NCBI GenBank assembly: GCA_963810095.1 | Contig: CAWEMM010000009.1 | Span: 96,001 to 160,000 of the forward strand | Length of the DNA stretch: 64,000 nt | Source: an uncultured Chloroflexia bacterium | Lineage (GTDB): Bacteria > Chloroflexota > Anaerolineae > CG2-30-64-16 | Direction of reading: 5' to 3' | In this document: piece by piece, positions 45,761 through 63,221 of the stretch | Position numbering within the stretch: the stretch's first letter is position 1 | Layout of the letters: the number at the start of each line of letters is the position of its first letter | Made by a program: the position numbers and the translations under genes | The notes under the pieces: model-generated | Told to the model about the DNA's origin: nothing | Seen by the model: the letters and a program-made list of their open reading frames with translations, nothing else | Database searches by the model: none

Positions 45761-45816
45761 TGCACCACTAATACATCCTTTTGGGTCTCCCTCGCCAACC
45801 GACATTGCGGTATCCT
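45761..45816 (+). promoter_or_regulatory. Shared motif copy 1 (upstream of argF)
   Basis: TGCACCA-CTAA-TACATCC-TTTTGGGTCT-22 nt-TATCCT. Confidence 0.7.
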
Positions 45817-46001
45817 CTGAGAAGCAGGCCCAGCGCCCTCTGGCTGGGGGCTGTTCCGCAGGCGGCGCGATTTGCTTTTTCGCGCCTTGCGACTGAGGAT
45901 TAAGCGTCGAGGATCGGGCCGTGAGCACGGTCTCTCGGGACTCCGAACTTGGTGCGCGCGACCCTCAATCATACTTGCTACGCAGAAGGAGAAGCTCACT
46001 C

Positions 46002-47003
46002 ATGGCATTTAACCTGCGGAACCGCAACTATCTGAAAGAGCTGGACTTCACCCCGGAAGAACTCAGGTTCCTGCTCAAGCTGTCTGCCGATCTCAAGGCC
46101 GCGAAATACGGCGGCTACGAACAGCCTCGCCTCAAGGGGAAGAACATTGCGCTCATCTTCGAGAAGTCGTCGACCCGCACCCGCTGTGCGTTCGAGGTAG
46201 CGGCCTACGACCAGGGCGCGCACGTGACGTATCTTGGGCCAGAGGGCTCGCAGATCGGGCACAAGGAGTCGATGAAGGATACGGCGCGGGTCTTGGGCCA
46301 CATGTACGACGGGATCGAGTACCGGGGCTTTGGGCAGGAGACGGTGGAAATCCTCGGCCGGTATGCAGGCGTGCCCGTGTGGAACGGTCTGACGAACGAG
46401 TTTCATCCGACGCAGTCCCTGTGCGACGTGCTGACGATGGTCGAGCACAGCAACAAGCCGCCGAGCAAGATCGCCTATTGTTACCTGGGCGACGCGCGCT
46501 TCAATATGGGCAACTCGTTGATGGTGATGGGCTGCAAGATGGGCATGGACGTTCGCCTCTGCGCGCCCCGCCCACTATGGCCGGCCGACGAGCTGGTGGC
46601 GGCGGCCAGGCAGGTGGCCGCGCAGACCGGCGCCCGCCTCACGCTGACCGAGAACGTCGAAGAAGGCATCCAAGGTGTGGACTACATCCATACCGACGTG
46701 TGGGTGTCGATGGGCGAACCGAAGGAAGTCTGGGACGAGCGCATCAAGCTGCTCAAGCCGTACCAGGTGAACGCGGACGTGATCAGCAGGACCGGGAACC
46801 CGCAGGTGAAGTTCATGCACTGTCTCCCCGCATTCCATAACCGGGAGACGAAAGTTGGCGAAGACATCTACCAGAAGACGGGGCTTGATGCGCTTGAAGT
46901 GACCGACGAGGTTTTCGAGTCGGAACGGTCGATCGTGTTCGAACAGGCCGAGAACCGCATGCATACGATCAAAGCGATCATGGTCGCGACGCTCGGAAAC
47001 TGA
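46002..47003 (+). CDS. argF: Ornithine carbamoyltransferase
   Basis: [26 protein letters not shown]. Confidence 0.95.
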
Positions 47004-47133
47004 GGGCAGGGCAAACGCAGCCCTACTGACCCCCCGTATGCCGCCGGCTGTGCGAACCGCGGCCGGCGGTATGACCGCTTACCCGATTGCATCGTTCCGC
47101 CGCCGATCATTTATCTCACTGAGGAGGACAGGC

Positions 47134-47994
47134 ATGAGCCAAAGGAACTGGCTGTCGACGATGATGCTGGCAGTGCTCTTGCTGGCGCTTGTGGGCTGCA
47201 CGCCCCCACCTGCGGCGCCGGCGCCGGCTCCCACTTCCGCACCGGCGAGCAATGCAGAGCCCGCCGCGGGATCGCCGCCGGGCCAGGGCCTGCCGGGCTC
47301 GGAGTGGCAGCTTGACGCGATGTTTGGGGGGCCGGCTGCGGTGCCGGTGGTGCCCGGTAGCGTTCCAACGCTGGCCTTCGCAGAGAACCGCTATCTTGGC
47401 TTCGGCGGGTGTAACTGGTATCAGGGGCTCTTTGTCCTGCGCGGGACCAATGGTCTCCAGTTCAACGGGCCCGCGACGACGCGCTTCGGCTGCACCGCGA
47501 ATACGCCGACTTCCGTGCAGGAAGCCACCCTCATCCCCATGCTGACCAGCATCGCCAAGTACGACATCAAGGACGGCAAGCTGCGGATGTTCATGGGCGA
47601 CGACACGCTGCTGTTGACCTTTACACAGCTCCAGCCCGTACCGCTGGAGGGCACCCCCTGGTTGCTCAATTTCTACTTCTCCCAGCCGACTGCCATGTGG
47701 ACGCCGCCGCTCGTCGGCACGATGCCCACCTTGCGCTTTGAGGGCGGGCAGGTGAGCGGCAACACCGGCTGCAACGATTTCACCGGCAAGTACGATCTGC
47801 AGGGTGACCAACTGAAGATCAGCAACCTGGCGACGACGAAAAAGACTTGCGACCAGCCCAACGGCATCATGACCCAGGAGCAGGCCTACCTGTCCACGCT
47901 TCAGAGCGCGACGACGCTCCAGAAGTTCCCGCGCACGGTCCAGCTGCTGGGGAGCGACGGCCAGCCGCTGCTGATCTACAACACCGGCAAGTAA
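47134..47994 (+). CDS. Lipoprotein with two META (HslJ-like) domains
   Basis: LVGC lipobox; GFGGCNWY and GNTGCNDF; TTxxxC...QE. Confidence 0.85.
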   Translation: MSQRNWLSTMMLAVLLLALVGCTPPPAAPAPAPTSAPASNAEPAAGSPPGQGLPGSEWQLDAMFGGPAAVPVVPGSVPTLAFAENRYLGFGGCNWYQGLFVLRGTNGLQFNGPATTRFGCTANTPTSVQEATLIPMLTSIAKYDIKDGKLRMFMGDDTLLLTFTQLQPVPLEGTPWLLNFYFSQPTAMWTPPLVGTMPTLRFEGGQVSGNTGCNDFTGKYDLQGDQLKISNLATTKKTCDQPNGIMTQEQAYLSTLQSATTLQKFPRTVQLLGSDGQPLLIYNTGK

Positions 47995-48036
47995 ACCCTG
48001 GGGGGCCCGCGCTTTGCGGCGGGTAAGGAGGCGAGT

Positions 48037-48963
48037 GTGGCTAAGGACAAGAAGGACAAGAAGGACAAGAGGGACAAACACAAGGGCAAGCTCGACACCA
48101 AGCCCGAGGCCGCGCAGGTCGCGGAGCCGGGCGGCGGCGCGCCGGCCATCGTTTCCGCAGCGCCGCAGGAGGCCGGCTGGGACGACAAGCCCAAAATGAA
48201 GAAGAAGGAGTACGAGGCGGAACTGGAGCGGCTCCAGGTCGAACTCGTCAAGATGCAGGAGTGGGTGAAGGCCACGAACGCCAAGGTCTGCGTTCTCTTC
48301 GAGGGCCGCGACGCGGCCGGCAAGGGCGGCATCATTAAGGCCATCTCCGAGCGCACCAGCCCCCGGGTGGTCAGGGTCGTGGCCCTGGCTTCGCCCACCG
48401 AGCGCGAGAAGTCGCAGATGTACTTCCAGCGTTACATGCCCCACCTGCCGGCCGGAGGCGAAATGGTGCTTTTCGACCGCAGTTGGTACAACCGGGCGGG
48501 GGTCGAGCGCGTCATGGGCTTCGCGACCGAAGAGCAGGTGGCGAGCTTCCTGAAGTTTGCGCCGGCGGTGGAACGGGCCATCGTCGCGTCCGGGGTCATC
48601 CTCGTCAAGTACTGGCTTGAAGAGACCATGGAGGACCAGACCGAACGGTTCGAGGAGCGCATCCACGACTACAAGAAGATCTGGAAGCTGAGCCCGATGG
48701 ACCTGGAAAGCCACCGCCGCTGGTATGACTATTCGCGGGCGCGCGATGCGATGTTTGCGGCCACCGACTGCCCGGAAACGCCCTGGTACGTGGTGGACTC
48801 GCACGACCAGAAACGCGGCCGGCTAAATTGCATCAGTCATCTCCTCAGCCTTGTGCCCTATCACGAGGTGCCACACGAAGAAGTGGTCTTGCCGAAGCGC
48901 CAGGACAAGGGCGATTACGAGAACCCGAACCATCCATTCCGGTGGGTGCCGGCCAAATACTAA
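48037..48963 (+). CDS. ppk2: Polyphosphate kinase 2
   Basis: FEGRDAAGKGG, DRSWYNR, WKLSPMD. Confidence 0.95.
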   Translation: MAKDKKDKKDKRDKHKGKLDTKPEAAQVAEPGGGAPAIVSAAPQEAGWDDKPKMKKKEYEAELERLQVELVKMQEWVKATNAKVCVLFEGRDAAGKGGIIKAISERTSPRVVRVVALASPTEREKSQMYFQRYMPHLPAGGEMVLFDRSWYNRAGVERVMGFATEEQVASFLKFAPAVERAIVASGVILVKYWLEETMEDQTERFEERIHDYKKIWKLSPMDLESHRRWYDYSRARDAMFAATDCPETPWYVVDSHDQKRGRLNCISHLLSLVPYHEVPHEEVVLPKRQDKGDYENPNHPFRWVPAKY

Positions 48964-48999
48964 GCCTCCGGTCATTACGGGAGAGGAGTTGATCCGATC

Positions 49000-51762
49000 A
49001 TGGCAGATGGCTCTCAACAATCAAAGTGGTACACCTTGGGGCCGGACGCAGTGGCCCGCGAACTCAAGGTCGACCCGGCAAAAGGGTTGAGTTCGGCCGA
49101 GGCGCAGCAGCGCCTGCAGCAGTACGGGCCCAACCAGCTTGCCGCCAAGAAAAAGGAGCCCGGCTGGCTGTCGTTCGTGCGCCAGTACAAGGACTTCATG
49201 CAGATCATCCTGATCGGCGCGGCGGTGATCAATCTGATCTTCACCCAGGACCTCCGCACGTCCGTGATGCTGGTCGTCCTCACCATCTTCAACGCTGTGA
49301 TGAGCCTGCGCCAGGAGTCCAAGGCCGAGGCTAGCCTGGCCGCGCTCGAGAAGATGATGAAGAACATCGCCCGGGTGCGGCGTGACGGCCAGGCGATCGA
49401 GATCGAGGCCGAAGCGATTGTGCCCGGCGATATCGTGCTGATGGAGGCCGGCAACCGGGTGCCTGCCGACGGCCGTCTCTTCGTCACGGCGACCCTCGAG
49501 ATCGAGGAGGCCGCGCTGACGGGCGAGAGTGTCGCCTCGCCGAAGGACACGGAGACGATTGAGAAGGCGGACGCTGCGCTTGGCGACCGCCACTGCATGG
49601 CCTACATGAACACCGCGGTCACCCGGGGCCGGGGCGAGATGATCGTCACGACGACGGGCATGGGCACCGAGATGGGCCACATCGCCGACCTGCTGAACAA
49701 GACTGAAGCGGACAAGACGCCGCTGCAGAAGCAGCTCGACCGCCTGACCATCATCATCGCCGGCATCGCCGGCCTCGCGTTTATCGTCATGTTGATCCTT
49801 GGCCTGGCGCGCGGCCAATCCTTCGACTCCGTCTTCGTCGCCGGCATCGCGCTGGCTATTTCGGCCATCCCGACCGGCCTCCCGGCGGTGGTGACGACGC
49901 TTTACTCCATGGGCACGCAGGTGCTGGCAAGTCAGAACGCGATCGTCAAGCGGCTGCCTTCCGTCGAGACGCTCGGGTCGGTCTCGGCAATCTGCTCGGA
50001 CAAGACGGGCACCCTCACGCTCAACAAGATGACGGCCCGCGAGTTCACGGTGCCGGGCCAGAACCACTACAAGGTAACCGGCGAGGGTTACAGCACGCAG
50101 GGCCAGCTGCTGCATGACGGCGGCGCAAAGATCGACCTCGACGAAATTCTGCTGCCCATGGCGCTCTGCGCAGATGCTCGCCTCGACGGGACGGACCTCA
50201 TCGGGGATCCGACCGAGGGTGCACTGATCGTGTTGGCCGAAAAGGGCGGCATCAGCGTCGAAGGGGCCCGCCAGAAGTACCCTCGTATCGCCGAAGTCCC
50301 GTTCGACTCGGACTACAAGTTCATGGCGACCTTCCATAACATGACGAATGCGGAAGGCAAGCCCGTCGTGCGCTGCTTCGTGAAGGGCGCGCCCGACGTG
50401 CTCATCGCCCGCAGTAATTCGCTGTGGGTGCCCGGCGGCCAGGTTCTCGTCGGCGACGAGGAGAAGGGCCGGCTGGCGCTGGCAGAGAACGAGCGCATGG
50501 CGAAGGCCGGCGAGCGCGTCATGGTGGTGTCGCGCCGCGACTTCGATCCCGCCACCTTCGACCCGAAGGGCCCGGCCGGCGACGGCAAGCTGCTGCCCCT
50601 CGTGCAAGACCTGACGTTCCTCGCCATGGTCGGCATCGTCGATCCGCCGCGTGCGGAGGCGAAGGCCGCCATCGCCAAGTGCCACAGCGCGGGCATCCAG
50701 GTCCGCATGATTACGGGCGACCATGCGGTGACGGCCGCGGCCATCGGCCACGAGCTGGGCATCGAGGGCAAGGCGCTGACGGGCGCGCAGTTCGCCGCCA
50801 TGAGCGACGACGACCTGAAGAAGGACCTCGACAACATCGGCGTGATTGCCCGGGTGGCGCCCGAGGACAAAATCCGGCTGGTGCGCCTGCTCCAGGAGCA
50901 GCAAAACATCGTCGCCATGACCGGCGACGGCGTAAACGATGCGCCGGCGCTGAAGAAGGCCGACATTGGCGTCGCGATGGGCATCACGGGTACGGAGGTC
51001 TCCAAGGGCGCGGCGGTCATGATCCTGACCGACGACAACTTCGCAACCATCGTGAAGGCGGTGGAGTTCGGCCGGGCCATCTACGACAACCTGGCGAAGT
51101 ACATCCGCTTCCAGATGACCGCGCTCGTCGCATTCATCGCCTCCTACCTGGGTGCGGCGTTGTTCCTCATCGCGGGCGGCGTGCCGTTCTCGCCCCAGGT
51201 CGTCTTGTGGATCAACTTCCTCGTCCAGGTGCCGATCGCGATTGCGCTCGGCTTCGACAAACCGTCACCCGGCCTCATGGATCGCAAACCGCGGCCGCTC
51301 AGCCAGCCGGTAATGAACCGGGCGCAGTGGAGCCGTGCCATCTTCATCGGCTTGCTGATGACGGTCGGCACCCTCGTGTTCGAAGCAATTGGTTCCCAGT
51401 ACGCGACGCCGCTCATGTTCACCATGGGCTTTGCGGTGTTCTCGCTGTTCAACATTGTGATGGGGTTGGCCGTGCGCAGCGAAACTGACACGGTGTTCAC
51501 CCGGGACATCTTTTCCGACCGGCGCCAGCTGGGGCTGTACGGCCTTGCCCTGCTGTTGACCTTGCTGCCCACCGAGTTGGCGTTCCTCCGCGACCGGTTC
51601 GGCCTGACCGGCCTCACCATGCAGCAATGGCTGATCTGCGCCGCGGCTGCGTTTGCCTTGTTGCTCGTCACCGAGATCATGAAGGTCTTTCTCCGGCGGG
51701 GCCGCAAGCAAGCGGCTGCGCAGGCTGAAGCCGTCCCGGTTTCGGGGCCGCAGCCCGCATAA
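49000..51762 (+). CDS. P-type (P2-like) cation-transporting ATPase
   Basis: TGES, DKTGTLT, KGAP, TGD, GDGVND. Confidence 0.93.
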   Translation: MADGSQQSKWYTLGPDAVARELKVDPAKGLSSAEAQQRLQQYGPNQLAAKKKEPGWLSFVRQYKDFMQIILIGAAVINLIFTQDLRTSVMLVVLTIFNAVMSLRQESKAEASLAALEKMMKNIARVRRDGQAIEIEAEAIVPGDIVLMEAGNRVPADGRLFVTATLEIEEAALTGESVASPKDTETIEKADAALGDRHCMAYMNTAVTRGRGEMIVTTTGMGTEMGHIADLLNKTEADKTPLQKQLDRLTIIIAGIAGLAFIVMLILGLARGQSFDSVFVAGIALAISAIPTGLPAVVTTLYSMGTQVLASQNAIVKRLPSVETLGSVSAICSDKTGTLTLNKMTAREFTVPGQNHYKVTGEGYSTQGQLLHDGGAKIDLDEILLPMALCADARLDGTDLIGDPTEGALIVLAEKGGISVEGARQKYPRIAEVPFDSDYKFMATFHNMTNAEGKPVVRCFVKGAPDVLIARSNSLWVPGGQVLVGDEEKGRLALAENERMAKAGERVMVVSRRDFDPATFDPKGPAGDGKLLPLVQDLTFLAMVGIVDPPRAEAKAAIAKCHSAGIQVRMITGDHAVTAAAIGHELGIEGKALTGAQFAAMSDDDLKKDLDNIGVIARVAPEDKIRLVRLLQEQQNIVAMTGDGVNDAPALKKADIGVAMGITGTEVSKGAAVMILTDDNFATIVKAVEFGRAIYDNLAKYIRFQMTALVAFIASYLGAALFLIAGGVPFSPQVVLWINFLVQVPIAIALGFDKPSPGLMDRKPRPLSQPVMNRAQWSRAIFIGLLMTVGTLVFEAIGSQYATPLMFTMGFAVFSLFNIVMGLAVRSETDTVFTRDIFSDRRQLGLYGLALLLTLLPTELAFLRDRFGLTGLTMQQWLICAAAAFALLLVTEIMKVFLRRGRKQAAAQAEAVPVSGPQPA

Positions 51763-51892
51763 CAGACCTGCGCCCGCCGGGGTCGCGACAGCTCCATGCC
51801 GCGGTCCCGGGGGCGCCCATCCCTGTTTCGATCAACCTGCCCAGGTTGTGAGATAGTTCGTTTGAAGCACATCTATCAAAGGAGTTGCAGTC

Positions 51893-52807
51893 ATGACCGA
51901 GCCCCAGGAACAAGAACAGGTCCAACCGGCTGCGGAGGAGCAGCCGCAAGCGTCTGAAGTGGCCCCCGTCGCCGCGGAACCGCAGGCCGTGCCCGGTGTG
52001 GGCTTCCTCGTAATGGCCTTCAACGACGAAAAGGCCGCGGATCAGGCGCTCGACGCGATGAAACAGGCCAAGAAGCAGAAGCAGTTCTACTTCGAGGAAG
52101 CTGCTGTCATCCGGCAGGATGTCAACGGTAAGGTGCACTATCACGAGACCGGCGACATGGGCAAAGGCAAGGGCGCAGGCATCGGCGCGCTCGTCGGCGG
52201 CGTCCTGAGCCTCCTTGGCGGCCCCATTGGCCTCGCAGTGGGCGCGGGCATTGGCGCGCTGGCGGGCGCGGCAGCGGCGACCAAGGACAGCGGTTTCCGC
52301 AACGAGAGCCTGAACATGGTAGGCGTCGCACTGAAGCCGGGGACCTCGGCCGTCGTGACCATCACGAGCAGCGCGTTCCTCAAGGCTGTTCAGAAGCAGG
52401 TGCCCATCGACGAGATCCGGGGGACGGTGACCAACCTCTCCGCCGAGATCTCCGCGGCCCTGGCCGAGAAAAAGGATCTTGCCATCGGCGTGCTGCTGAC
52501 CGAAACCGGCCTCGCCGTGCGGAAGATCGCCATCAATGAAGAGAGTGCCGAGGTTGTCGCCGCGGTGTTCACCGACGAAGCGGTTGTGGCGGGCGCGGCG
52601 TACGTGGACGCACAAGGCGTCGCGTACGAGGTGGTCGCAGCGACGGCCGACGGTGCGGCGATGGAAGCCGGGGTCATTACGGACGAAGGCGCGGTCATCG
52701 TCGGCGCGGTGGCCCTGCCGGCGGCGGCCGAAGCAACCGCTGCGGCGCCCGACGGCCGACGAGAACAAGGTTTCGGCCGAGAAGCCGGCCGAAACACCTG
52801 CGTCTGA
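51893..52807 (+). CDS. DUF1269-family membrane protein with repetitive C-terminal extension
   Basis: GAGIGALVGG..LLGGPIG glycine zipper, LKPGTSA. Confidence 0.75.
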   Translation: MTEPQEQEQVQPAAEEQPQASEVAPVAAEPQAVPGVGFLVMAFNDEKAADQALDAMKQAKKQKQFYFEEAAVIRQDVNGKVHYHETGDMGKGKGAGIGALVGGVLSLLGGPIGLAVGAGIGALAGAAAATKDSGFRNESLNMVGVALKPGTSAVVTITSSAFLKAVQKQVPIDEIRGTVTNLSAEISAALAEKKDLAIGVLLTETGLAVRKIAINEESAEVVAAVFTDEAVVAGAAYVDAQGVAYEVVAATADGAAMEAGVITDEGAVIVGAVALPAAAEATAAAPDGRREQGFGREAGRNTCV

Positions 52808-52980: not shown

Positions 52981-53036
52981 TGCACCTTCAATACACCTTT
53001 TTGGGCCTACCGCAGTATCACCTGCGGTGGTAACCT
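52981..53036 (+). promoter_or_regulatory. Shared motif copy 2
   Basis: TGCACCT-TCAA-TACACCT-TTTTGGGCCT-22 nt-TAACCT. Confidence 0.75.
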
Positions 53037-53420: not shown

Positions 53421-53858
53421 ATGACTTTTGGCCCAATCGATTTCATCGCACTTGAGTTTCCCGGTAACAACTTCAAGGGTGAAATCCTCCCCGACATCTT
53501 TGAGCTCGTCGATCGGGGCGTGATCCGCGTGCTCGACCTGGTGATCATTCAGAAAGACCCGGACGGCGCGCTGCGTGTGCGCGAGCTTCAAGAACTCGAG
53601 CCGGGCATGATGACGGTGCTCAACCCGCTGAAGGCCGAAGTCAGCCAGATGATCACGGTCGCCGACATCGACAACATCGCGGCCAAGCTCGAGCCCAACA
53701 GCACCGCAGGCCTGATGCTCATCGAGAATGTGTGGGCCAAGAAGACCCAGCAGGCGATGATCGAAGCGAACGGCCGGCTGGTGATGTTCGAGCGTATCCC
53801 GCACGACGTCGTCGAAGAAGCACTGGCCGAGATGGCCGCGCTGGCCGAGCGAGCGTAG
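53421..53858 (+). CDS. DUF6325/DUF1269-like protein
   Basis: GPIDFIALEFPG, IRVLDL, ENVWA, ERIP; AAGGAG RBS. Confidence 0.8.
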   Translation: MTFGPIDFIALEFPGNNFKGEILPDIFELVDRGVIRVLDLVIIQKDPDGALRVRELQELEPGMMTVLNPLKAEVSQMITVADIDNIAAKLEPNSTAGLMLIENVWAKKTQQAMIEANGRLVMFERIPHDVVEEALAEMAALAERA

Positions 53859-53951: not shown

Positions 53952-54335
53952 ATGATGCGAAGACGAGGGATGCCGTTGGTGCGCGCGGCCGCGACGACCG
54001 CGGTCGTGGCGGGGACCGCAGGAGCGGTCAGTCACCATCAGCAGCAGAAGTACCAGCAGCAGGCTTACGAGCAGCAGGCTATGTACTCCCAACAACAGGC
54101 AAGCCAGCAGCAGCAGATCGACGCTGCCCAGCAGCAGGCTTACCAACAGGGCTTGGTCGACGCACAGGCCCAGCAACAGCAGTATGCTGCGCCGCCACCG
54201 CCGCCAGCACCGGCGCCCGCGGCTCCCGGCAATGACCTGACGGCCCAGCTGCAGCAGCTTGCGCAGCTGCACAACGCCGGCGTGCTGAACGACGAGGAAT
54301 TCGCCGCAGCGAAGCAGAAGCTGCTGGCCGGCTGA
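53952..54335 (+). CDS. SHOCT-domain protein, Gln/Pro-rich
   Basis: AATTAVVAGTA N-term; QLQQLAQLHNAGVLNDEEFAAAKQKLL. Confidence 0.85.
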   Translation: MMRRRGMPLVRAAATTAVVAGTAGAVSHHQQQKYQQQAYEQQAMYSQQQASQQQQIDAAQQQAYQQGLVDAQAQQQQYAAPPPPPAPAPAAPGNDLTAQLQQLAQLHNAGVLNDEEFAAAKQKLLAG

Positions 54336-54480
54336 AGCAGAGGGCTTAACCCTGTCACCCGTAGTTGTGCTTACAATCGGATGTTCTGTATAATGTCTTT
54401 CGGGTCTCTGGTCGCACGGCCAATCGCGTGTCGTGGGTAGTTCATCTCTCCGTTTCATAACGTTTCTAGGAGGAAAAATC

Positions 54481-55047
54481 ATGACCGCATCAGTAGCACC
54501 GTCAGCTACGTCAGTCCCCGCACGGCAGCGTCCCTGGTGGCTGACGCTGATCATCGGCATCTCTGCAGTCGTCATTGGCGCCATCTTGCTCTTCGGCACC
54601 GTGGACAGGCGCATTGATACGTACATGTTCCTGGTCAAGGCGCTCGGCCTGTACTGGGTCGTTTGGGGCATCCTGGAACTCGTGTGGATGTTCATCGACC
54701 ACAGCGGCTGGGGCTGGAAGTTGTTCATGGGCATAGTAAGCATCATCGCAGGCGGGTCGATCCTGATGTACCCGGTTGCGGCTGCGATGACTCTGCCCCA
54801 GGTCTTCGTGCTGGTGCTCGGCATCTGGGCCCTCATGGAAGGCATTATGTTGCTCTTCCTCGCCTTCAAGGGCGGTGGCTGGGCGGCCGGCATCCTCGCG
54901 GTGATCTCCATCGTGCTGGGCCTCATCCTGCTCGGCTCCTACGGCAACCTGGGCACGGGACTTGCGATGCTGTGGGCCGGTGCGATCTGGGCCTTCATCG
55001 GTGGCTTTGTCCTGATCTTCCAGGCGTTCCGCTCCCGGAAGGCCTGA
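54481..55047 (+). CDS. HdeD/DUF308 family membrane protein
   Basis: WWLTLIIG, repeated G-x-x-x-I/L-x-G TM hairpins; AGGAGG RBS; TATAAT at 54389. Confidence 0.8.
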   Translation: MTASVAPSATSVPARQRPWWLTLIIGISAVVIGAILLFGTVDRRIDTYMFLVKALGLYWVVWGILELVWMFIDHSGWGWKLFMGIVSIIAGGSILMYPVAAAMTLPQVFVLVLGIWALMEGIMLLFLAFKGGGWAAGILAVISIVLGLILLGSYGNLGTGLAMLWAGAIWAFIGGFVLIFQAFRSRKA

Positions 55048-55282
55048 GAGCAAAGGACTGTTCTGGAGCCTACGCTGCCTGACGACAGCGGGAGTTTCTC
55101 ATAGGGAGACACGTGGGCGGAGTGAGACCCGACGCCCGCAGTGTGAAGCCGTGTGAGCGCCCGCCAGTCAGAGCGTAAAGCCCAGAGCATGAGGCGCAGT
55201 CAGAGAGCGCCATCCTATCGTGTCTGTCAGGAGCGGCCTGCCCAAGGCCGCTCTTGCTTTATGTTCGCCGGCCCTCTCCAAA

Positions 55283-55338
55283 TACACCCAAACTACACCC
55301 AAATGGGCCTATTGTCAGGCTTACAAATGGCGTATGCT
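55283..55338 (+). promoter_or_regulatory. Shared motif copy 3
   Basis: TACACCC-AAAC-TACACCC-AAATGGGCCT-22 nt-TATGCT. Confidence 0.75.
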
Positions 55339-55411
55339 ATTTGTGGGTGCCCTTATCGGATCGCTGCCGGGGGCATCCCATCCACACCCTATTCAGTCAG
55401 GAGGCCGAACC

Positions 55412-55729
55412 GTGTTACTCATTGGATGTCTCTTCGCATTCGCCCTCGCCGTCGCCCCGCGCGTTGTCCTGGTGCTCGCCTGGATCTTCAGCGACCGCTG
55501 GCAGATCGTCTGGGGCGGCCAGTGGCTCTTGCCCTTGTTGGGGATCATCTTCCTGCCCTTCACGACCGTCATGTACATGCTGACGTGGAAGCCGACCGGC
55601 ATCCAGGGTTGGGACTGGCTGTGGATCGGGCTGGGCGTGTTCATGGACCTGATGAAGTGGGCCCAGATCGCGGCCAACCGGAAGGGCATCCCGGGCTACC
55701 CCGACGGGAACCCCGCCCCCGTTGTCTGA
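55412..55729 (+). CDS. Small membrane protein
   Basis: AGGAGG + GTG; CL...PR...PLLGIIFLPFTT.MY...GI.GWDWLWIGL. Confidence 0.75.
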   Translation: MLLIGCLFAFALAVAPRVVLVLAWIFSDRWQIVWGGQWLLPLLGIIFLPFTTVMYMLTWKPTGIQGWDWLWIGLGVFMDLMKWAQIAANRKGIPGYPDGNPAPVV

Positions 55730-55849
55730 TCCGCAAACCGTCCGTCATGGGATGGCAGTGTCCGCCAGCGGTTGAGCTAACGTGGGCCGCCAGATAGCTT
55801 GCTATACTGCGGCCCACGCATGGACCCCGCCTTCAAGAAGGAGTGGCAC

Positions 55850-56425
55850 ATGGCAGGGAACTTGTTGGTCCTGGCGTTTGACGGGGAGCACACGGCCAAG
55901 ACCGTGTGGGGCGACCTTATGAAGCTCGAGGAAGCCGGCGTGGTCGACATCGAGGACGCGGTCATCGCCTGGCGACCGCCGCTCGAGGGCCCCGATCTCG
56001 CCAGCTCGATGGCGGCCACTAGCGTTTCCACCGCGTCCAGTGTCTCCACCCGCACGAACGTCTTCGATTCCTCCAAGCTGCAGATCGAACAGACGAAGCA
56101 TCCCCTGAAGAAGAAGTATGCCGGCCGCGGCGCCGCCATCGGATTCGTGGCCGGGGTCTTGCTGGGCGGCCCCATCGGCGGGCTGGTCGTGGGAGCGGGC
56201 ATCGGTGCGGTCAGCGGGTCGATGAAGGACGCGGGCATCAAGGAGGACTTCATCAAGCAGACTGCAGCCGCTTTGAAGCCGGGCACCTCCGCCATCTTCG
56301 CCCTGGGCCATGCCAACGACCCCGAGCGCCTGATGCAGGAGCTGCGGGCGTTCGAGCCCCGGGTGCTTTCGACCACCCTCGATCCGGAGAAGGAGCGCGA
56401 GCTCCGTAACGCGCTGGGCGGCTAA
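55850..56425 (+). CDS. DUF1269-family membrane protein
   Basis: LLVLAF, IEDAV, GGPIGG zipper, GIKEDFIK...LKPGTSAIF, VLSTTL. Confidence 0.82.
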   Translation: MAGNLLVLAFDGEHTAKTVWGDLMKLEEAGVVDIEDAVIAWRPPLEGPDLASSMAATSVSTASSVSTRTNVFDSSKLQIEQTKHPLKKKYAGRGAAIGFVAGVLLGGPIGGLVVGAGIGAVSGSMKDAGIKEDFIKQTAAALKPGTSAIFALGHANDPERLMQELRAFEPRVLSTTLDPEKERELRNALGG

Positions 56426-56450: not shown

Positions 56451-56492
56451 AAAATCCGCATGGCGCCGTGGTGGGCCATGCGGATTTCTTTG
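56451..56492 (+). terminator. Intrinsic (possibly bidirectional) terminator
   Basis: AAATCCGCATGGC/GCCATGCGGATTT + CTTT. Confidence 0.7.
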
Positions 56493-56499
56493 TTCTGCG

Positions 56500-56750
56500 G
56501 CCGGCGAGCTTCGCCATCGACGCAAACGTGAAGAATGCGACGAGCGCCAGTACGCCCACCACCGCCAGGATCGTGAGCACGAGCGACAGCCCCGGCTTGA
56601 CGCCCTTCTTCCTGAGCCAGCCTGGCAACGGCAGGATTGCGATGGTTTACCATAACCCGGCCCAGCGGGGCAAGAATAAAGGCCAGCGACCGCAGGCCCC
56701 AGAAGGGAATGACGGCGGCCGCCACTTAGGAGGGCGTCCTCTTATCCATA
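56500..56750 (-). pseudogene. Truncated remnant of AI-2E family transporter N-terminus
   Basis: AAAVIPFWGLRSLAFILAPL then, in another frame, IAILPLPGWLRKKGVKPGLSLVLTIL; in-frame stop and abrupt end. Confidence 0.55.
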
Positions 56751-56806
56751 ATTGCTTCTCCTGCGGAGGTTCGACTTTGCCTGGCCACGCCGGAGCGAGC
56801 AGAAAC

Positions 56807-56853
56807 AAAAAATGGACGGGATCTCTGCAGCTCGGCTGCATCAGCCCCGTCCA
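56807..56853 (-). terminator. Intrinsic terminator
   Basis: Minus strand ATGGACGGG...CCCGTCCAT-TTTTT. Confidence 0.7.
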
Positions 56854-56900
56854 TACTTCTTAGTTACCCGCCGTCACCGGCGTTGTGTTCTTGGGCGAGC

Positions 56901-57200
56901 CTAGCGGCCGTAGCCCAGCCGGTTGCGGTTGCCGTAGCCACCCCCACCGTACGAGCCGATGTCAGCGAACAGGGCCAGGCCCAGCCAGAGCCAGTCAAGG
57001 CCGACAATGCCGCCGGGCGCCACGATGACGTACATCAGCGTCAGCCAGGGCACGAACACCAGGCCCAACACGGGCCAGATCCAGCTCTGGAAGGCAGAGA
57101 TGCCGGTTGCGCCGACCCAGCGCGTCGGCTGGGCGATCCACCAAATCAAGCCCGCGACGCGGGGACCGAGGAAGATCAGAACGGTGAACAAACAACACAT
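56901..57200 (-). CDS. Small membrane protein, paralog of 55412..55729
   Basis: MCCLF...PR...PVLGLVFVPWLTLMY...GIVGLDWLWLGL. Confidence 0.78.
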   Translation of the reverse strand: MCCLFTVLIFLGPRVAGLIWWIAQPTRWVGATGISAFQSWIWPVLGLVFVPWLTLMYVIVAPGGIVGLDWLWLGLALFADIGSYGGGGYGNRNRLGYGR

Positions 57201-57293
57201 AGAGATGCTCCTGTTGGCGCGGGCCTGTTCGACAGAGCGCTCCGCTGGCAGTGGAACCCCTCGCATCGAACAGGCTGCGCGACTAGATGCGGG

Positions 57294-57947
57294 CTACGCC
57301 GCAGATTCCCAACGGTCGTACGAGTCGAGGTTGAAGCTCTGATTCTGCTTGATCTGGGCCACGATGCCGAGCACCGCCACCACGAGGAACAGGATCGCGG
57401 CGAGCGGCGAAGCGTCCAGGATCGCGCGTACCGGGTTTTCCAGCACCTGCGCGGCCGGCTTGAACATCAGCACGATCGACCCGATGATGGCCTCCGCACC
57501 CAGCACCGCTGTGCCGATGATGATCACGTACTTCTGGATATTGAACCGGATCGTCACGATCGCGAGCAGGACGCCCGCAATGATGCCGATCAGCCAAACC
57601 AGGAAGCCCATGTTCAGGCCAATGGCCAGCAGAATGCCGACGACCGCCGAATAGCCCAGCGCACCGGCAATAATGCCCACGGCCGCTATATAGAATAGGT
57701 AGGACAGCACCGCGAAGATGCCGCCGACGATGAAGCCGACGACCCAGCTGGTGATCGAAAGCAGGAAGGGGAAGTTTCCGCCGCCGATCGCCTGCAGGGT
57801 CTGTGCACCGAGGGTCAGCCCGAAGAAGAAGCCGAAGATCGGGAGCAAGACCAAGAAGAAGCGGTAGCCGGCGAAACAGAGGGCGAGGCCGAACATGATG
57901 CCGATCAGGCCCGCACACGCCAAGGTGAAGAATGACTCGTTAACCAT
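57294..57947 (-). CDS. DUF4203/TMEM198-like membrane protein
   Basis: GLALCFAGYRFF...GFFFG, TAVLGA; GGAGG RBS. Confidence 0.78.
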   Translation of the reverse strand: MVNESFFTLACAGLIGIMFGLALCFAGYRFFLVLLPIFGFFFGLTLGAQTLQAIGGGNFPFLLSITSWVVGFIVGGIFAVLSYLFYIAAVGIIAGALGYSAVVGILLAIGLNMGFLVWLIGIIAGVLLAIVTIRFNIQKYVIIIGTAVLGAEAIIGSIVLMFKPAAQVLENPVRAILDASPLAAILFLVVAVLGIVAQIKQNQSFNLDSYDRWESAA

Positions 57948-58255
57948 GATGGTTCCTCCATTGTGACGGGTGGTAAGAGAGATGATGGATGATGAGTTTA
58001 CAAGTTATGGGGTAACTTCGATACTCAGCCTCCCTGCGGGGAGCACGCTCCCCTCATATTTTCCCGGTAGGTCTTCATCCGGGCGCTGCTTGCGGGGTCT
58101 TTATCAGGGCCAGGATCGTACAGGCTTAACCGATCCGGGGCGAAGAAGTCGCGGTTGGCATGTTGGATCGGCAGTGCGGAATGCCAGTTGTGGCCTCTTC
58201 TGCGCACTGCGAGCAGCATACCAGTGGCTTGCTGCTCGCAGTGCCTACCGGCGCG

Positions 58256-59083
58256 TTATTCCGCCCGGTCCATGAGGGCGCCGGCCGTCGCGTCCAGCGC
58301 TTCCGCCTGGCCAACCATCTCGGCACCGGCCGCGATGTCTGCTACGCCTTCCAGCGCAAGGGCCTGACCGGCCTGCACCAGTTCCTGGCCTGCCTCGAGC
58401 GCCACGGCGCCTTGCACGACTTTCTGAGCGCCCGCGGCTGCCAGCGCGTCACTCACATCGGCCGCACGCTCGGCCACGCCAACGCGCACGACGCCTTCCT
58501 CCAGCTCATCGATGCCCATCTCGCCGACGCGAGCCGCGGTCGAGGCCATCGAGGCGGCGACTGCACGGCCTGCGCCGAACTTGATGACCGTTTCGACGGC
58601 CAGTTGGTGCAGCGCATTGCTCTTCACGTCGAGGAAGTCGGCCAGCACGGGCATGTTTCGCATGGAAACGATGTCGGCCACCACGGCCAGCTGGCCGGCG
58701 ATCGCCGCAATGCCCATCGAGTTTTCGAGGTCAGATTCGCTCAGGAACCCGACCAACTCGCTCTGGACTTCCACGTCTTCCGAATGCTCGAGCAATTCGG
58801 CGCCTTGCGCAACATCGACGATGCCCGCCGCGGCGACGACGCTGCTGATCTTCGACAGGCCTTCGGCAACGGCGATTTCGTCCGCGCCACGCGTCAGCGC
58901 GGCCGCGCCCACTGCCACCGCGCCGCGGCCCAGGCTGCCCACCTCGCGGGCCGCCTCGAGCTTGTTGAGCCCTGCCTTCGCCTGGTCCAGGCCGAGAACG
59001 CCCTCCTGGATTGCGATGTCCTCGACGGCGTTGGCCGTCTCCTGCAACTCACGCTTGCCGACTGCTACTTTTTTCGCTGCCAT
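58256..59083 (-). CDS. Hypothetical Ala/Gly-rich 28-residue-repeat helical protein
   Basis: AAGGAG RBS, start MAAKKV; G-x6-G at 28-aa spacing. Confidence 0.75.
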   Translation of the reverse strand: MAAKKVAVGKRELQETANAVEDIAIQEGVLGLDQAKAGLNKLEAAREVGSLGRGAVAVGAAALTRGADEIAVAEGLSKISSVVAAAGIVDVAQGAELLEHSEDVEVQSELVGFLSESDLENSMGIAAIAGQLAVVADIVSMRNMPVLADFLDVKSNALHQLAVETVIKFGAGRAVAASMASTAARVGEMGIDELEEGVVRVGVAERAADVSDALAAAGAQKVVQGAVALEAGQELVQAGQALALEGVADIAAGAEMVGQAEALDATAGALMDRAE

Positions 59084-59178
59084 TGAAAGCTCCTTAGGTT
59101 GGTGGACTTTGTTTAGGCATCGCGTACGCCCGCCAGGACCTACGCGATGCGATAACACGGATTCGAGCGGTTCCCCGC

Positions 59179-61490
59179 CTACTGGGCCGCGTATTGGAGC
59201 AACTTCTGCCCCGACGCGGCGAAGATGGTCAACTGCGAGCCCGAAACCTGGTAGGTTGCAGACTGCTGCAGCGCCGCCAGGTAAGCCTGCCCCTGGCTGG
59301 CGACGTCCTCGGGACAAGCCATGCCTGTCGTCACCGGCAACCCGACCGTCAACGTGCTCGCGGTGGCCGAGTAAGGTGCGTTGAAGGTGTTGCAGCTATC
59401 GTTGCCCGTAACCTTGCCATCGCCGCCAAACAGGGCCGTCATCGTCGTGCCCGCGATGGGCGACACCATGGCCTCCTTGCCGTTGTTATACGAGAGGAGC
59501 ACCCAGTTCTTGCCGATGATCGCGGGCGGCTGGGCGGTCGCGGTCGGTGGCGCTACTGTCGGTGGCGCCACGGTCGGTGGTGCAACCGTCGGCGGAACTG
59601 CTGTCGGCGGAACTGCTGTCGGCGGCGCGGCTACGTTCACGTACGCCTGGGCATTGCTCTGGCCGCCTGGGCCCGTGGCTGCCAGTGTGTAACTCACCGT
59701 CCCGCTTCCGGGAGGACAGTCTTGCACCTGCCCACGGATTGGCGCACCATCCCAGATCGGCGTGCCCGCGCGCGATCGTGATCAGCTGCACCTGGCCCTG
59801 CACATCCCACTGGACGTTCACGCATTGACCGGGTTGGATCTGTGCCGGCGTCACCGTGAACAGGGCGATGACGGGTGCGCTGCCGGGCAGCACGGTGATC
59901 ATGATGGCCTGCGTCTGAGTCGTGCCGTTGGTGAAGACCACTTGCAGGAAGTAGGTCGTCGTCTGCGGCGGGCATTCGGTCTGGCTGCCCTGGCCGGCGA
60001 CGCCGTGCTGCAGCGGGTCCTGTCCCTGCGCGTAGAAGTAGACGGCCGACACGTTCTGCACATTCCATGTGAATACTACGCACTGACCGGCCGTGATAGT
60101 GGTCTGACTCGCCGTGAAGCTGATCGAGGGCGACGGCGGCGACGTCGGGGCAGCGGTCGGCGTGGGCGCGACTACCTGGATGCCAACATAGACCTTGGTC
60201 CCGAAGGCCACGCCCTTGCCGTTCTTCATCTGCCAGAAGCCCTGGTACACCCCGGGTTGCGTCGGCGCTGTGAGATTCACCGAGATATCGTAGGTTGCAC
60301 CTGGCGCCACAGTGCCTTTGATATTGGTCGGCTGGCCCCCCATCTGTGCGGCGGCAGTGTTGCCCGACGCGTAGGCCAGGTAGTAGGTGCTATCCCACGT
60401 GCAGGTGCCGCTGTTGCGGATGCGCCAGCTCTTCACAAACTGCTGGCCGGGTTTCATCACCGGCGGCGCAGTCATATTCTGGTCGTCGTAGTTAAGGTCG
60501 GCCACGTACGACATGTTGTCGATGCATCCGGCCGGGGTCGGGCGAGGGCTGAACCGGGACCGTGGTCGCCGGCGGAACAACCGTCGGGACCGGCGTCGGC
60601 ACGGGTAGGATGCCGTCCGGCTTGAGCCCCAGGAATTTCTCGGCAAGCGCAGCGTACTCACCGCTTGCAACGACGTTCGCAATGGCCGTGTTGAAGACGC
60701 GGCGGAGCGACTCGGCGCCCTTTGGCAATGCGATGGCGTAGGCCTGCGGCTTGACGCCCTCGCCCACTACCTTCACGCCGCCGGCCTGCACGTACGTCTT
60801 CGCCGGCTGAGAATCGAGCACGACCAAATCCAGCCGGCCCTTCTTCAGGTCCTGTACGGCTTGCCCGATGTCCGGATAAGATCGGAGGTTCGCTGCCGGC
60901 ATCAGGTTCGTCGACACGAGCGTCTTTTCGAGATAAGTCTCGTAGACCGAGCCGCTCTGCACGCCGACGATCTTGTCGGCCATCTGCTCGACCTTAGTGA
61001 TGACGCCGATGGAGGAATCCGCGGCGCTCATCGCGACGCCGGTGCCGGTGTAGTAGATGTTGGTGAAGTCGACGTAGGGCTCGCGGTCCGGGGTGACCGA
61101 GATAGCCGCGATCGCGGTGTCGATGGCGCCGAGTTGAAGCGCGTTGTAGAGACCATCGAACGCATAGTCCTTGATCTCAACCTTGACGCCCAGTTGCTTC
61201 CCGATCTCGCGGATCAGCCCGATGTCGAAGCCGTCGAGCTGGAACCGGCTGTTGTAATACTCGAACGGTTCGTAGTCCGCCGACGTGCCTACCCGCAGGA
61301 CGCCTGCCTTCTGGATCTGAGCCCAAAGGTCCTGAGGGGGAACCGGGGTTGTTATGGGCGGTTGCGTTGCCACCGTCGCGCGCGTCGGCTCGGGGGCGGG
61401 CGCCGGGGTGGAACTGCCGCCGCATCCTGCCAGAATCGTCGCGACGACGAGGATTGCGGTGACCGCCGTCAGTAGAGAGCTGCGTTTCAT
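59179..61490 (-). CDS. Multidomain lipoprotein: amino-acid SBP (family 3) + Nbr1-like Ig-fold + beta repeats + META (frameshifts near 60545 and 59765)
   Basis: LAGC lipobox; VGTSADYEPF, GFDI; PGQQFVKSWRIRNSGTCTW; GQCV..W.V twice; GNDSCN; ORFs 60492..61580, 59486..60682, 59179..59727. Confidence 0.78.
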
Positions 61491-61667
61491 GGAGGGGCTT
61501 GCTCCTTGTGTGCGGCTGCAGCCGTCCAACTCGCCGGCCGCGTCAAGTGCTCGCAGGCAGCCCTGCGAGCACACGAACAACCTTGGCAGCGCGTGCAGCC
61601 TTGATCCGCCGTGACCCGCCCGCCGCCCAGCTGTGAGCGACAGATGCGGGCACGATCGGCTTGCTGG

Positions 61668-62234
61668 TTACCGGCTCGGGTGGGCCATCTCGTCGACGCA
61701 CACCGCAATCGCCAGAATCAGCGCGTCGTCCTGTCCGGGGTCAATCTCGACGCCGTAGGTGTCGCGCAGGCGGAACCATTTCTTGGAGATCTCGGCGATC
61801 TTGTCGCGGCCTTCGCCAATGGTATATTCGTGGTCCAGGATGTTGCCCTGAACCTCGAGATCTGGCCCGCCGCGCACGTTGACGGTCCAGCGTTCGCGGA
61901 TCGGCGTGATGAGCGCTTTCTTCACCATGGCAACCCGCTGGCCGCGTGCGTCCTCGACCTCCATAGAGTCCTTGACGCGCAACATGCGCTCCTGGATCTT
62001 ATAGAGTTCCTGGCCGCGGGCGTCCTCGAGGATCAAGGTTTGGCGAACACGCAGCGCCTTGCCGTCTACCTTGTAGACCTTCTCCCCGCGATCGTTCTCG
62101 ATCCAGAAATCGTCGCCGATCGATATCATCTTCTGCCGCATCTGGTAGTGGTTTTTGCCGCCACCGCCGCCCAGTGGGCCCCCGCGGTCGTCTTGCCGCT
62201 CATCGCGGCGCTCTTCACGTGCTCCCCGACGCAT
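61668..62234 (-). CDS. LURP-one/Tubby-C (YxjI-like) protein
   Basis: YQMRQKMISIGDDFWIE, GNILDHEY, SKKWFRLRDTYGVEI. Confidence 0.85.
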   Translation of the reverse strand: MRRGAREERRDERQDDRGGPLGGGGGKNHYQMRQKMISIGDDFWIENDRGEKVYKVDGKALRVRQTLILEDARGQELYKIQERMLRVKDSMEVEDARGQRVAMVKKALITPIRERWTVNVRGGPDLEVQGNILDHEYTIGEGRDKIAEISKKWFRLRDTYGVEIDPGQDDALILAIAVCVDEMAHPSR

Positions 62235-62392
62235 AATGCTCTCCTTATTCTAGGGTGTGGACCGGTGTCCGGGTTTAGGGACAAGCCCTCAGCAGAAGGA
62301 CGCTTTCAGGTGTATCCGCTCTGACAGAGGACTCAAACGGTCTTGTTCCGTGCGTGTCCCGCCAGCGCAGGAGCGCTGGAAACTACAGTCGC

Positions 62393-62448
62393 ATGATACA
62401 GCTTTGTCCCCGCTCTGGACAGACCCAAAAGGGTGTACTTGCGGGTGA
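62393..62448 (-). promoter_or_regulatory. Shared motif copy 4
   Basis: Minus strand TCACCCG-CAAG-TACACCC-TTTTGGGTCT-22 nt-TATCAT. Confidence 0.75.
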
Positions 62449-62462
62449 TTATGAGCCGGCCG

Positions 62463-63090
62463 CTACTTTTTGGGCGCGGGGACCGCGGGCAGTTGCTCGA
62501 TGGCTTTCTTGTCGAGCTTTAGGTAGACGACGTCGCCTTCGACATGGTCCACCTGCTCCAGCGGGATCGTGACATCTCGCTTGCCCCAGAAATGCCCCTT
62601 GCGCAGGACCAGGTGCGACACGACGCCGGTCGCCGGCTCGATGATCAATTCCTCCACCTTGCCGACGTCGCCGTCCGCTGCTTCGACGCGCGCGTCTTGA
62701 TGGATCGCCAGCTCGTTCAGCCCCACCTGTTCCTGCTCCATCGTGGCGTTCGACAAGGCTTCCACCATGTAGGCTGCGTCGGGCGAGGTGTAGGGGCCCA
62801 TCACGTTTGCGCCCGCCATCGAGTCGGCCAGCCTGGCCAACTGCTCCTCATCGGCCGGCACTTCTATGACGAAGGGCTCCGCGCCGGCCAGCTGGGCGCA
62901 GGTCCAGCTCAAGTCGATGCGCACAGCCGAGCTGCTTGCGATGGCCTCGACCGGGACCCGCAGCTCGAGTTCCTCGACTGCAACCACGAAGTGGGTTACT
63001 TTTCTGGTTGGCCGGTCTACAACGATCGCGGTGCTGCGACCGCCCGGGTCCGTCGGAACAAAAAACCTGCACGTTCAATGGGATATCCAT
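62463..63090 (-). CDS. PRC-barrel domain protein (frameshift near 63045)
   Basis: MDIPLNVQVFCSDG N-term; VEAADGDVGKVEELIIEP...HLVLRKGHFWG. Confidence 0.8.
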
Positions 63091-63165
63091 GCGTCACAGC
63101 TCCTTCTTGAGTCGGTGGGGCGCGCTCTGCGCGCGCGTCGCACTGGATCGTCGTCCACCGCTGCC

Positions 63166-63221
63166 AGTATCGCGCAGACGGCGGCCGTCCGACAGACCTA
63201 AAAGGGTGTAGTCGGGGCGTA
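63166..63221 (-). promoter_or_regulatory. Shared motif copy 5
   Basis: Minus strand TACGCCC-CGAC-TACACCC-TTTTAGGTCT-22 nt-GATACT. Confidence 0.7.

Follow-up and report, generated by a model that had tools for sequence, protein, structure and literature searches.

The question raised by this locus is whether five similar intergenic motifs form the operators of one regulon and, if so, which protein binds them. The motifs lie in a window of 64,000 nucleotides (G000:C9:96001-160000; positions without a prefix are those of the window) from the genome of an uncultured Chloroflexota bacterium (G000, a metagenome-assembled genome; 6.13 Mb in 16 contigs, 65% G+C, 88.5% complete). The original prediction, made from the letters of the window, had placed five copies of a tandem TACACCC-type motif in the right-hand part of the window, had assigned them to a MalT-like (LAL) regulator encoded at the window's edge, and had called the system apparently uncharacterised. 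On direct reading all five copies are present where they had been placed, and they are genuine copies of one shared promoter box. They are listed below with their scores against a position weight matrix (PWM), which was built from ten strong sites of G000 that include these five, so that their high scores hold by construction.

45761..45816, + strand, promoter P1: TGCACCA (45761-45767), TACATCC (45772-45778), TTTT, GGGTCT (45783-45788), 22 nt, TATCCT (45811-45816); PWM 49.3
52981..53036, + strand, promoter P2: TGCACCT (52981-52987), TACACCT (52992-52998), TTTT, GGGCCT (53003-53008), 22 nt, TAACCT (53031-53036); PWM 42.8
55283..55338, + strand, promoter P3: TACACCC (55283-55289), TACACCC (55294-55300), AAAT, GGGCCT (55305-55310), 22 nt, TATGCT (55333-55338); PWM 46.6
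62393..62449, - strand, promoter P4: ATCACCC (62449-62443), N5, TACACCC (62437-62431), TTTT, GGGTCT (62426-62421), 22 nt, TATCAT (62398-62393); PWM 49.2
63166..63221, - strand, promoter P5: TACGCCC (63221-63215), N4, TACACCC (63210-63204), TTTT, AGGTCT (63199-63194), 22 nt, GATACT (63171-63166); PWM 45.5

In all five copies exactly 22 nt separate the GGGYCT-type element, (G/A)GG(T/C)CT, from the -10-like hexamer (TATCCT, TAACCT, TATGCT, TATCAT and GATACT), as had been claimed. The upstream heptamer was said to recur with N4 spacing, that is, as an 11-bp repeat; this holds for P1, P2, P3 and P5, but in P4 the heptamer is offset by one base (N5). The lack of a consensus -35, claimed for four of the copies, was borne out as well, none of the five promoters passing a full sigma-70 consensus scan (-35 plus -10) of positions 45000-64000. 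Each copy is oriented toward a co-directional gene 50-150 nt downstream, again as predicted, and P5 begins 35 nt past the stop codon of the LAL gene. P3 was placed by the open reading frame (ORF) caller inside ORF 55220-55729; homology of this ORF to relatives begins only at residue 54, and its true start is therefore placed downstream of P3.

When the core pattern TACAYCYWWWTRGGYCT (17 nt) was searched with at most one mismatch, 6 matches were obtained in the window, 5 of them exact, compared to 0 in each of 100 dinucleotide-preserving shuffles of the window. The sixth match (2150-2166, - strand, one mismatch) has neither an upstream heptamer nor a -10 at 22 nt, its PWM score does not exceed 12, and by eye it looks coding-like; for these reasons it was taken as chance. 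The earlier remark that the motif is not seen in the left 45 kb thus holds in substance.

Across G000 the core pattern occurs 5 times exactly, 8 times with at most one mismatch and 21 times with at most two. In five further strong sites (C9:40450, C9:167917, C9:392968, C7:597050 and C7:604529) both an upstream heptamer and a -10 at 22 nt are present; the search pattern contained neither element. The ten strong sites with box and -10 at 22 nt score 34.6-50.9 with the PWM (by construction, as noted above), the next-best match in G000 scores 21.5, and the maximum in the reversed G000 genome, which served as the genome-wide null for PWM and regular-expression searches, is 22.7. A regular expression describing the architecture only returned 10 sites vs 1 in the reversed genome in its strict form, and 15 vs 6 in its loose form. 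The original prediction had singled out random position and orientation genome-wide as the matter to be checked; 10/10 strong sites lie between genes and run in the same direction as the gene that follows, the apparent exception P3 being the ORF-caller artefact described above. Seven of the ten lie within 18 kb of the LAL gene on contig C9.

The regulon had been equated with an 18-kb block of the window. All five units of this block do have boxes, but the other five strong sites lie elsewhere, and variant sites are found near LAL paralogues. About 6-10 variant sites in G000 have the same layout with another proximal palindrome: the distal TACAYCC heptamer, a T-rich spacer and the -10 at 22 nt are kept, and the proximal palindrome is changed (e.g., TGGCTCT-TAGA-GAGCCT and TAGCACT-TTTG-GTGCCT). 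The weaker variant sites are C15:35556, C15:37524, C4:2279, C4:4368, C5:12570, C7:595849, C9:3385 and C12:7998. The spacers of C9:40450 and C15:37524 are nearly identical, and these two look like duplicated promoters whose palindromes diverged later.

The genes behind the extra sites belong to the same families (DUF1269, DUF6325, SHOCT, an MscS-type channel, MFS and a kinase/regulator operon). The box at C7:604529 is followed by a long co-directional run (L002, G000:C7:597172-604416, minus strand) that encodes, in order, an 86-aa ORF, a protein with four MS_channel_1st_1 repeats, an MFS protein, a glycine-transporter-like protein, DUF1254/DUF1214 and SHOCT; a second box, C7:597050, lies after this run and before a DUF1269 gene. 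Behind the weak box C7:595849 come a sulfatase and a PIG-L deacetylase, and behind the box at C9:167917, a short way past the window's end, an operon for a GAF kinase and a NarL-type regulator. Neither the C9 LAL gene nor the AI-2E/Band7 genes that lie past the window's end have a box upstream, and the intergenic region of these AI-2E/Band7 genes, which adjoin the LAL (L001:4330-4360), reads as an ordinary TTGTAA-17-TATCAT promoter.

The box is also conserved in relatives, which were compared as a family of 37 genomes (completeness 98% for G022, 77% for G043 and 70% for G049; several of the compared genomes are 70-77% complete). Core matches, with control counts in brackets, numbered 8 (1) in G000, 6 (1) in G001, 3 (0) in G004, 2 (0) in G043 and 2 (0) in G049, and 12 of the 28 core matches listed have the full layout, all of them in G001, G004 and G022. 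All 13 core matches in the other-family genomes G026, G028, G032, G036, G038 and G040 have no upstream heptamer and no -10 and were set aside as chance, probably coding; two matches in G005 and one in G001 likewise have neither element and were dropped on the same view. In the syntenic cluster of G001, boxes stand before orthologues of the PRC, LURP-one and DUF1269 genes, of the cassette of a 101-aa ORF, DUF6325 and SHOCT, and of the kinase. When the regions upstream of the LURP-one genes of G000, G001, G004, G043 and G022, which represent three genera, were aligned, mean column identity was 50%; in the promoter-proximal part nearly all invariant columns fall in the box (T64-T80) and the -10 (T103, T108), and a few further invariant columns are scattered outside them.

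Among the sites of relatives, T[AG]CnnC is found at -11 in 13/18 and [TG]AnnnT 22 nt past the box in 16/18; the upstream heptamer was absent from both patterns used to find most of these sites, the -10 count is not independent for L046, L053 and L054 (found with TANNNT in the pattern), and neither count is independent for L039 and L010 (found with a matrix that scores upstream heptamer and -10). A species-wide search with a strict pattern, covering one genome per species and about 185,000 species, returned 24 loci, six of them with Chloroflexota titles. Three of the six (L049, L055 and L056) repeat known sites and three (L046, L053 and L054) are new; the new ones have box and -10 (PWM 36.0, 37.8 and 29.1, respectively), with a clear upstream heptamer in L046 only. 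The remaining 18/24 loci, from other phyla, were treated as chance on taxon alone and without a closer look; several, e.g., L045, L048, L051 and L065, nonetheless reach matrix scores of 25-28, and in L045 an upstream heptamer is present but shifted. Together, 28 sites yield the consensus T(a)CnCC(c)-N4-TACAcCc-TTTT-GGGnCT-N22-TAtncT.

These counts also bear on whether the motif is a protein operator at all. It could instead be a piece of repeated or mobile DNA, or a pattern due to chance or composition, and the core by itself can indeed arise by chance in coding DNA, as at 2150-2166, in the 13/13 other-family matches and in the 18/24 species-wide ones. The strong sites are, however, without exception intergenic and aimed at the next gene. 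They resemble one another in the box and the -10 only, their spacers being unrelated; in other genera, too, orthologous genes are preceded by this box, and the shuffles gave 0 matches. We regard this explanation as extremely improbable.

Given that the box is an operator, two regulator genes come into question as the source of the protein that binds it:

63257..64000, - strand, MalT-like (LAL) regulator, 3' part; GerE domain in ORF 63257-63745; the gene continues to G000:C9:162198
G000:C9:165516-166166, - strand, NarL-type regulator (REC + GerE) beside a GAF-HisKA_3 kinase, 6 kb beyond the window

The N-terminal ORF of the LAL (L001:2195-4198, - strand) matches the E. coli MalT structure 8bob_C (E 1.8e-53, residues 49-459); about 410 residues align to MalT, with Pfam AAA_16 at 28 bits, below its cut-off of 32.6. 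The GerE domain of ORF 63257-63745 (- strand) scores 63.1 bits (cut-off 23.5). TPR_MalT gives a fragment match only in the window LAL (E 0.004, 16.9 bits, cut-off 45), where this region is split over frames. It scores 122.5 bits in the intact, 911-aa orthologue of G004, which also has AAA_16 (below cut-off) and GerE, and 123.6 bits in the C-terminal 470 residues of the C7 paralogue of G000. Over the N-terminal part the G004 orthologue is 55% identical to the C9 LAL, and the recognition helix is identical (TVKRHTVNIYQKL).

The boxes recur beside LAL genes. The order LAL stop codon, box, target operon is found in six loci: in G000 on C9 (box at 159210), C4 (4368) and C12 (7998), and in G004 (L011:4591), G043 (L032:9627) and G049 (L039:1833). 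At two more loci, L046 (10001) and G000 C5 (533), the box is divergent from a LAL. The targets behind LAL-adjoining boxes differ (PRC, LURP-one, the DUF6325 cassette and pLGIC), and the linkage of LAL and box is therefore not one inherited arrangement. In G000, 4 of the 12 LAL genes examined have a PWM match above 12 within 600 bp; the whole reversed genome holds 7 such matches. Among the 37 family genomes, LAL matches with at least 49% identity to the C9 LAL are confined to G000, G001, G004, G043 and G049, which are the five genomes with the most core matches; these groups were compared after the motif counts had been seen, the genomes are kin and the counts are small. G005 has no LAL match at E<=1e-60, and its 2 core matches are those without the layout.

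Helix and half-site also co-vary. LALs with a ...NIYQKL or ...NLYQKL recognition helix adjoin boxes ending in (G/A)GGNCT in 6/6 cases (G000 C9a, G000 C5a, G004, G043, G049 and L046), and LALs with G or R at the Q position adjoin boxes ending in GCG(C/T)G(T/A) in 3/3 cases (G000 C5b, C12 and C4a). A fourth G-bearing LAL (G000 C8) has a weak box-like match only (PWM 7.2), ending in GGACCC, and fits neither class. Because of the recurring order of LAL stop codon and box, the boxes in genomes without a close homologue of the NarL-type regulator, the comparison of that regulator's recognition helix (both described below) and the co-variation of helix and half-site, we favour a LAL as the binder: judged from comparison of sequences, the boxes are probably operators of MalT-type LAL/STAND activators at -35-less promoters, and the likeliest binder is the LAL that ends at 63257, possibly together with a few paralogues.

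Several observations weigh against this assignment. The recognition helix, TVKRH..N(I/L)Y.KL, hardly varies among the roughly 10 LAL paralogues of G000. The syntenic cluster of G001 keeps its boxes, but a GNAT gene sits at the place of the LAL, and the closest LALs of G001 lie elsewhere, on contigs where the 14 kb fetched around each LAL contain no box. The box before the kinase/regulator operon matches what one would expect if that response regulator controlled its own operon. The C4a and C5b loci in the co-variation count are paralogous copies, and the phyletic and co-variation counts as a whole are small, drawn from genomes that are kin and in several cases 70-77% complete. Finally, the LAL gene as assembled is split over three frames. 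Deletion of the first four of the single bases that near-identical short metagenome contigs lack (see below) yields two ORFs, of 645 and 350 aa, whose overlap (2269-2309) falls in an uncovered 40-nt stretch, and no combination of such deletions that was tried yields one LAL ORF.

The frame breaks may, however, have a technical origin. The contigs lack single bases at L001 1828, 2027, 2137, 2551 and 4142, and two of these positions (1828 and 2551) coincide with frame changes of the LAL; the breaks are for this reason probably assembly indels, and the LAL gene is likely to be intact in the organism. The five positions are one-base differences within a partly covered 3.1-kb stretch (L001:1150-4300, G000:C9:159150-162300). 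The G000 assembly seems rich in single-base insertions, and other 'broken' genes there may be artefacts as well.

The NarL-type regulator is the first rival. It would be phosphorylated by the adjacent GAF-HisKA_3 kinase, would regulate its own operon and would activate the other boxes, as in DosR/DevR or NarL regulons, the LAL being a mere neighbour or target. GerE domains of the NarL family bind heptamer repeats, and the features of a NarL/DosR-type system are present here: a REC + GerE regulator beside a HisKA_3 kinase whose gene is immediately preceded by a full box with its -10 at 22 nt (C9:167917). The 28-nt kinase box is identical in G001 (L009:5323), where the kinase, regulator and REC genes are syntenic with the cluster and the LAL is missing at that place, and G004 has a regulator gene of 62% identity (L011:7465-8103) with a box-like site upstream (8188) and a LAL after it. 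This candidate failed in co-occurrence, however: G043, G049 and G022 have full-layout boxes, yet the sole regulator match found in them at E<=1e-55 is one of 52% identity in G049, and a full-length kinase match was found in none of the three. Its recognition helix, STVRFHVSAILAKL, is nearly the same as in the 70%-identical regulators of G004 and G007, yet the operons of the latter have a different conserved palindrome (TATAGT..ACCTATA) and no box. In six further contexts boxes adjoin LAL genes where no such regulator is present. Taken together, we think it decidedly unlikely that the response regulator is the binder.

Because their upstream palindrome is different, the kinase/regulator pairs of 70% identity in G004 and G007 were not treated as orthologues; that palindrome, TATAGT(T/A)..ACCTATA (L011:13440-13480 and L012:955-995), is probably the operator of this paralogous two-component system. 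In G004 the 62%-identical response regulator (within L011:7459-8415) has no kinase beside it and directly precedes the LAL (L011:4610-7345), so the two types of regulator may be functionally linked.

A second rival keeps the boxes as LAL operators but has another paralogue (e.g., the C5 or C7 copy), or several redundantly, driving P1-P5, or takes the operator to be composite, the distal TACACCC heptamer being bound by one protein and the proximal palindrome by another. The similar helices of the G000 LALs and the boxes of G001, with no LAL in the cluster, fit this, and so do the box-adjoining LALs of G043, G049 and L046, which are closest to the C5 paralogue of G000 (48-62% identity) and not to C9. 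The variant sites, in which the distal TACAYCC heptamer is kept while the proximal palindrome changes, also speak for this rival. On the other side stand the 7/10 strong sites within 18 kb of the C9 LAL and the G004 orthologue of this LAL, which again directly precedes a box. A different or shared binder of this kind seems to us unlikely though not negligible, and the LAL that ends at 63257 remains our candidate. The original claim that the LuxR domain of the MalT-like regulator binds and activates these promoters was thus right as to the family of regulator and, by comparison, probably right as to the gene; it had overlooked a rival binder, and could not have seen the division of the gene over frames.

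If the LAL is the activator, the geometry of the box suggests how it would act. Three half-sites lie one helical turn apart, two direct copies of TACACCC and an inverted GGGYCT, and the proximal pair forms a palindrome, ACCC-TTTT-GGGT. With a predicted start about 7 nt after the -10, the half-sites would lie at about -62 to -56, -51 to -45 and -40 to -35, and the palindrome would be centred near -42.5. A look-up of RNA runs for positions 53301-63300 of the window listed none. In MalT, signal- and ATP-dependent multimerisation brings several DNA-binding domains onto the boxes. Here too, a signal would switch the STAND ATPase to an ATP-bound multimer, and several GerE domains would occupy the half-sites; the proximal dimer may then replace the -35 contact for RNA polymerase in a class II-type activation. 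NarL/DosR and the class II activators LuxR/TraR likewise place a GerE-family helix-turn-helix on heptamer or palindromic sites, and the predicted position of the palindrome near -42.5 is like that of lux-type boxes; the likeliest binder here differs from both groups in having a STAND ATPase where they have a receiver domain or an autoinducer domain. In sequence, the right half (WWTRGGY) is similar to the half-site of Bacillus GerE.

One way in which so many paralogues could be kept apart is through a single recognition-helix residue, Q vs G/R after N-I/L-Y, which would select the right half-site (GGGYCT vs GCGYGT). About ten STAND paralogues could then share one promoter grammar (distal TACAYCC heptamer, proximal palindrome, -10 at 22 nt), and many signals could feed overlapping sets of a membrane and ion-homeostasis module that would be conserved, or exchanged, between Chloroflexota and Actinomycetota. 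We offer this tentatively and consider it possible but doubtful.

In the window, the five boxes would switch on five units: OTCase-META-PPK2-P-ATPase-DUF1269 (unit 1), 101aa-DUF6325-SHOCT-DUF308 (unit 2), small ORF-DUF1269 (unit 3), LURP-one-SBP fusion-TM protein (unit 4) and PRC barrel (unit 5). Elsewhere at least five more units may be switched on, including the GAF-kinase/NarL-regulator operon, which would make the regulon a regulatory cascade. The genes and other features of the window in and around these units are as follows, annotated by Pfam unless stated otherwise:

45111-45578, + strand, zinc-finger protein with two treble-clef domains (zf_Tbcl, zf_Tbcl_2), just upstream of P1
45921..47003, + strand, ornithine/aspartate carbamoyltransferase (OTCace_N + OTCace)
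47038..47994, + strand, META-domain protein
48037..48963, + strand, polyphosphate kinase 2 (PPK2)
49000..51762, + strand, P-type cation ATPase
51893..52807, + strand, DUF1269 protein, 304 aa
53082..53387, + strand, conserved 101-aa ORF with no Pfam match; first gene behind the box where the cassette is found (G001, G004, G043, G049 and L046)
53421..53858, + strand, DUF6325 protein
53952..54335, + strand, SHOCT-domain protein
54433..55047, + strand, DUF308 (HdeD-like) membrane protein
55228..55256, + strand, strong terminator-like hairpin of 12 pairs that separates the second and third units
55379..55729, + strand, small conserved ORF with no Pfam match and an approximate start, the 3' part of ORF 55220-55729
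55799..56425, + strand, DUF1269 protein, 208 aa
57294..57947, - strand, TM7S3/TM198-like membrane protein (Pfam match below cut-off)
58256..61580, - strand, SBP_bac_3/Ig-like (N_BRCA1_IG) fusion, split into several ORFs
61668..62234, - strand, LURP-one-related (LOR) protein
62463..62987, - strand, PRC-barrel protein

The gene list of the original prediction (argF/OTCase, META, PPK2, P-ATPase, DUF1269s, SHOCT, LURP-one, SBP fusion and PRC) is confirmed by Pfam, which adds DUF6325, DUF308 and the Ig-like domain. In G001 the SBP fusion is a single ORF of 766 aa (L009:13399-15699) with a C-terminal META domain; a fusion of family-3 solute-binding, N_BRCA1_IG and META domains behind a LURP-one gene is an unusual architecture. 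From this gene content, our best guess at the role of the regulon is a membrane and ion-homeostasis programme of stress or stationary phase, a role likewise conjectured for the counterpart in Actinoplanes described below.

In a full-text literature search TACACCC turned up in primers and unrelated sequences only, and a search joining DUF1269, SHOCT and LuxR found no paper. The description of the system as apparently uncharacterised nevertheless did not stand, since the kind of regulon is already established in Actinoplanes sp. SE50/110 by deletion, overexpression and transcription start site data (Droste et al. 2020, PMC7567727). [quoted passage not shown] The Actinoplanes operator, TCATCC-N5-GGATGA, overlaps the -35 of 17 mapped start sites, its 3' end lying 34.4 +/- 1 nt from the start, and the region encodes SHOCT, three DUF1269 proteins, an AI-2E transporter, two LALs, an OTCase, MFS, diacylglycerol kinase and DUF308, with ppk2 in the regions of relatives (PMC7567727).

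The two systems agree in several respects. A LAL stands beside a block of mostly membrane, poorly annotated genes, here with five boxes within 18 kb of the LAL. One motif lies over the -35 at a fixed distance, the box end being about 34-36 nt from the predicted start in G000 (22+6 nt to the end of the -10). By annotation only, SHOCT, DUF1269, AI-2E, OTCase, DUF308, MFS and ppk2 are common to both, as is diacylglycerol kinase, here found in G001. The order of the genes is shuffled between relatives in both cases, with the boxes retained. In Actinoplanes the AI-2E gene is part of the regulon, whereas the AI-2E gene beside the LAL in G000 has no box. The phylum (Chloroflexota vs Actinomycetota) and the operator sequence also differ: an exact search of G000 for TCATCC-N5-GGATGA gave 0 matches, and allowing one mismatch in each half gave 60, of which 43 are inside ORFs and 17 are intergenic without a common layout. 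A third half-site one helical turn upstream, about 10 LAL paralogues, box subclasses and a two-component operon as target further set G000 apart from Actinoplanes.

E. coli MalT offers a second comparison. The domain order (NOD ATPase, TPR-like sensor, GerE helix-turn-helix) is probably the same, and in both cases the promoters are without a -35 and have several boxes, the proximal one over the -35 region. The E. coli box, GGGGA(T/G)GAGG (as quoted in PMC7567727 and PMC9628970), differs from the one found here, and no maltose genes lie behind the G000 boxes. Another LAL binds short palindromes without a clear consensus (PMC9628970).

The regulon proposed here is therefore a further example of a kind already shown in Actinoplanes, and the kind itself is not new. 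What it provides is a concrete operator and a named candidate activator for the widespread DUF1269, DUF6325, SHOCT, DUF308, LURP-one-like and PRC-barrel proteins in an uncultured Chloroflexota lineage, and a link from these to the Actinoplanes MalT regulon, the one counterpart known to have been studied by experiment. The co-variation of half-site and helix gives a handle on how paralogous STAND regulators avoid cross-talk. That the same families stand behind LAL-dependent, -35-less promoters in two phyla suggests a common physiological programme.

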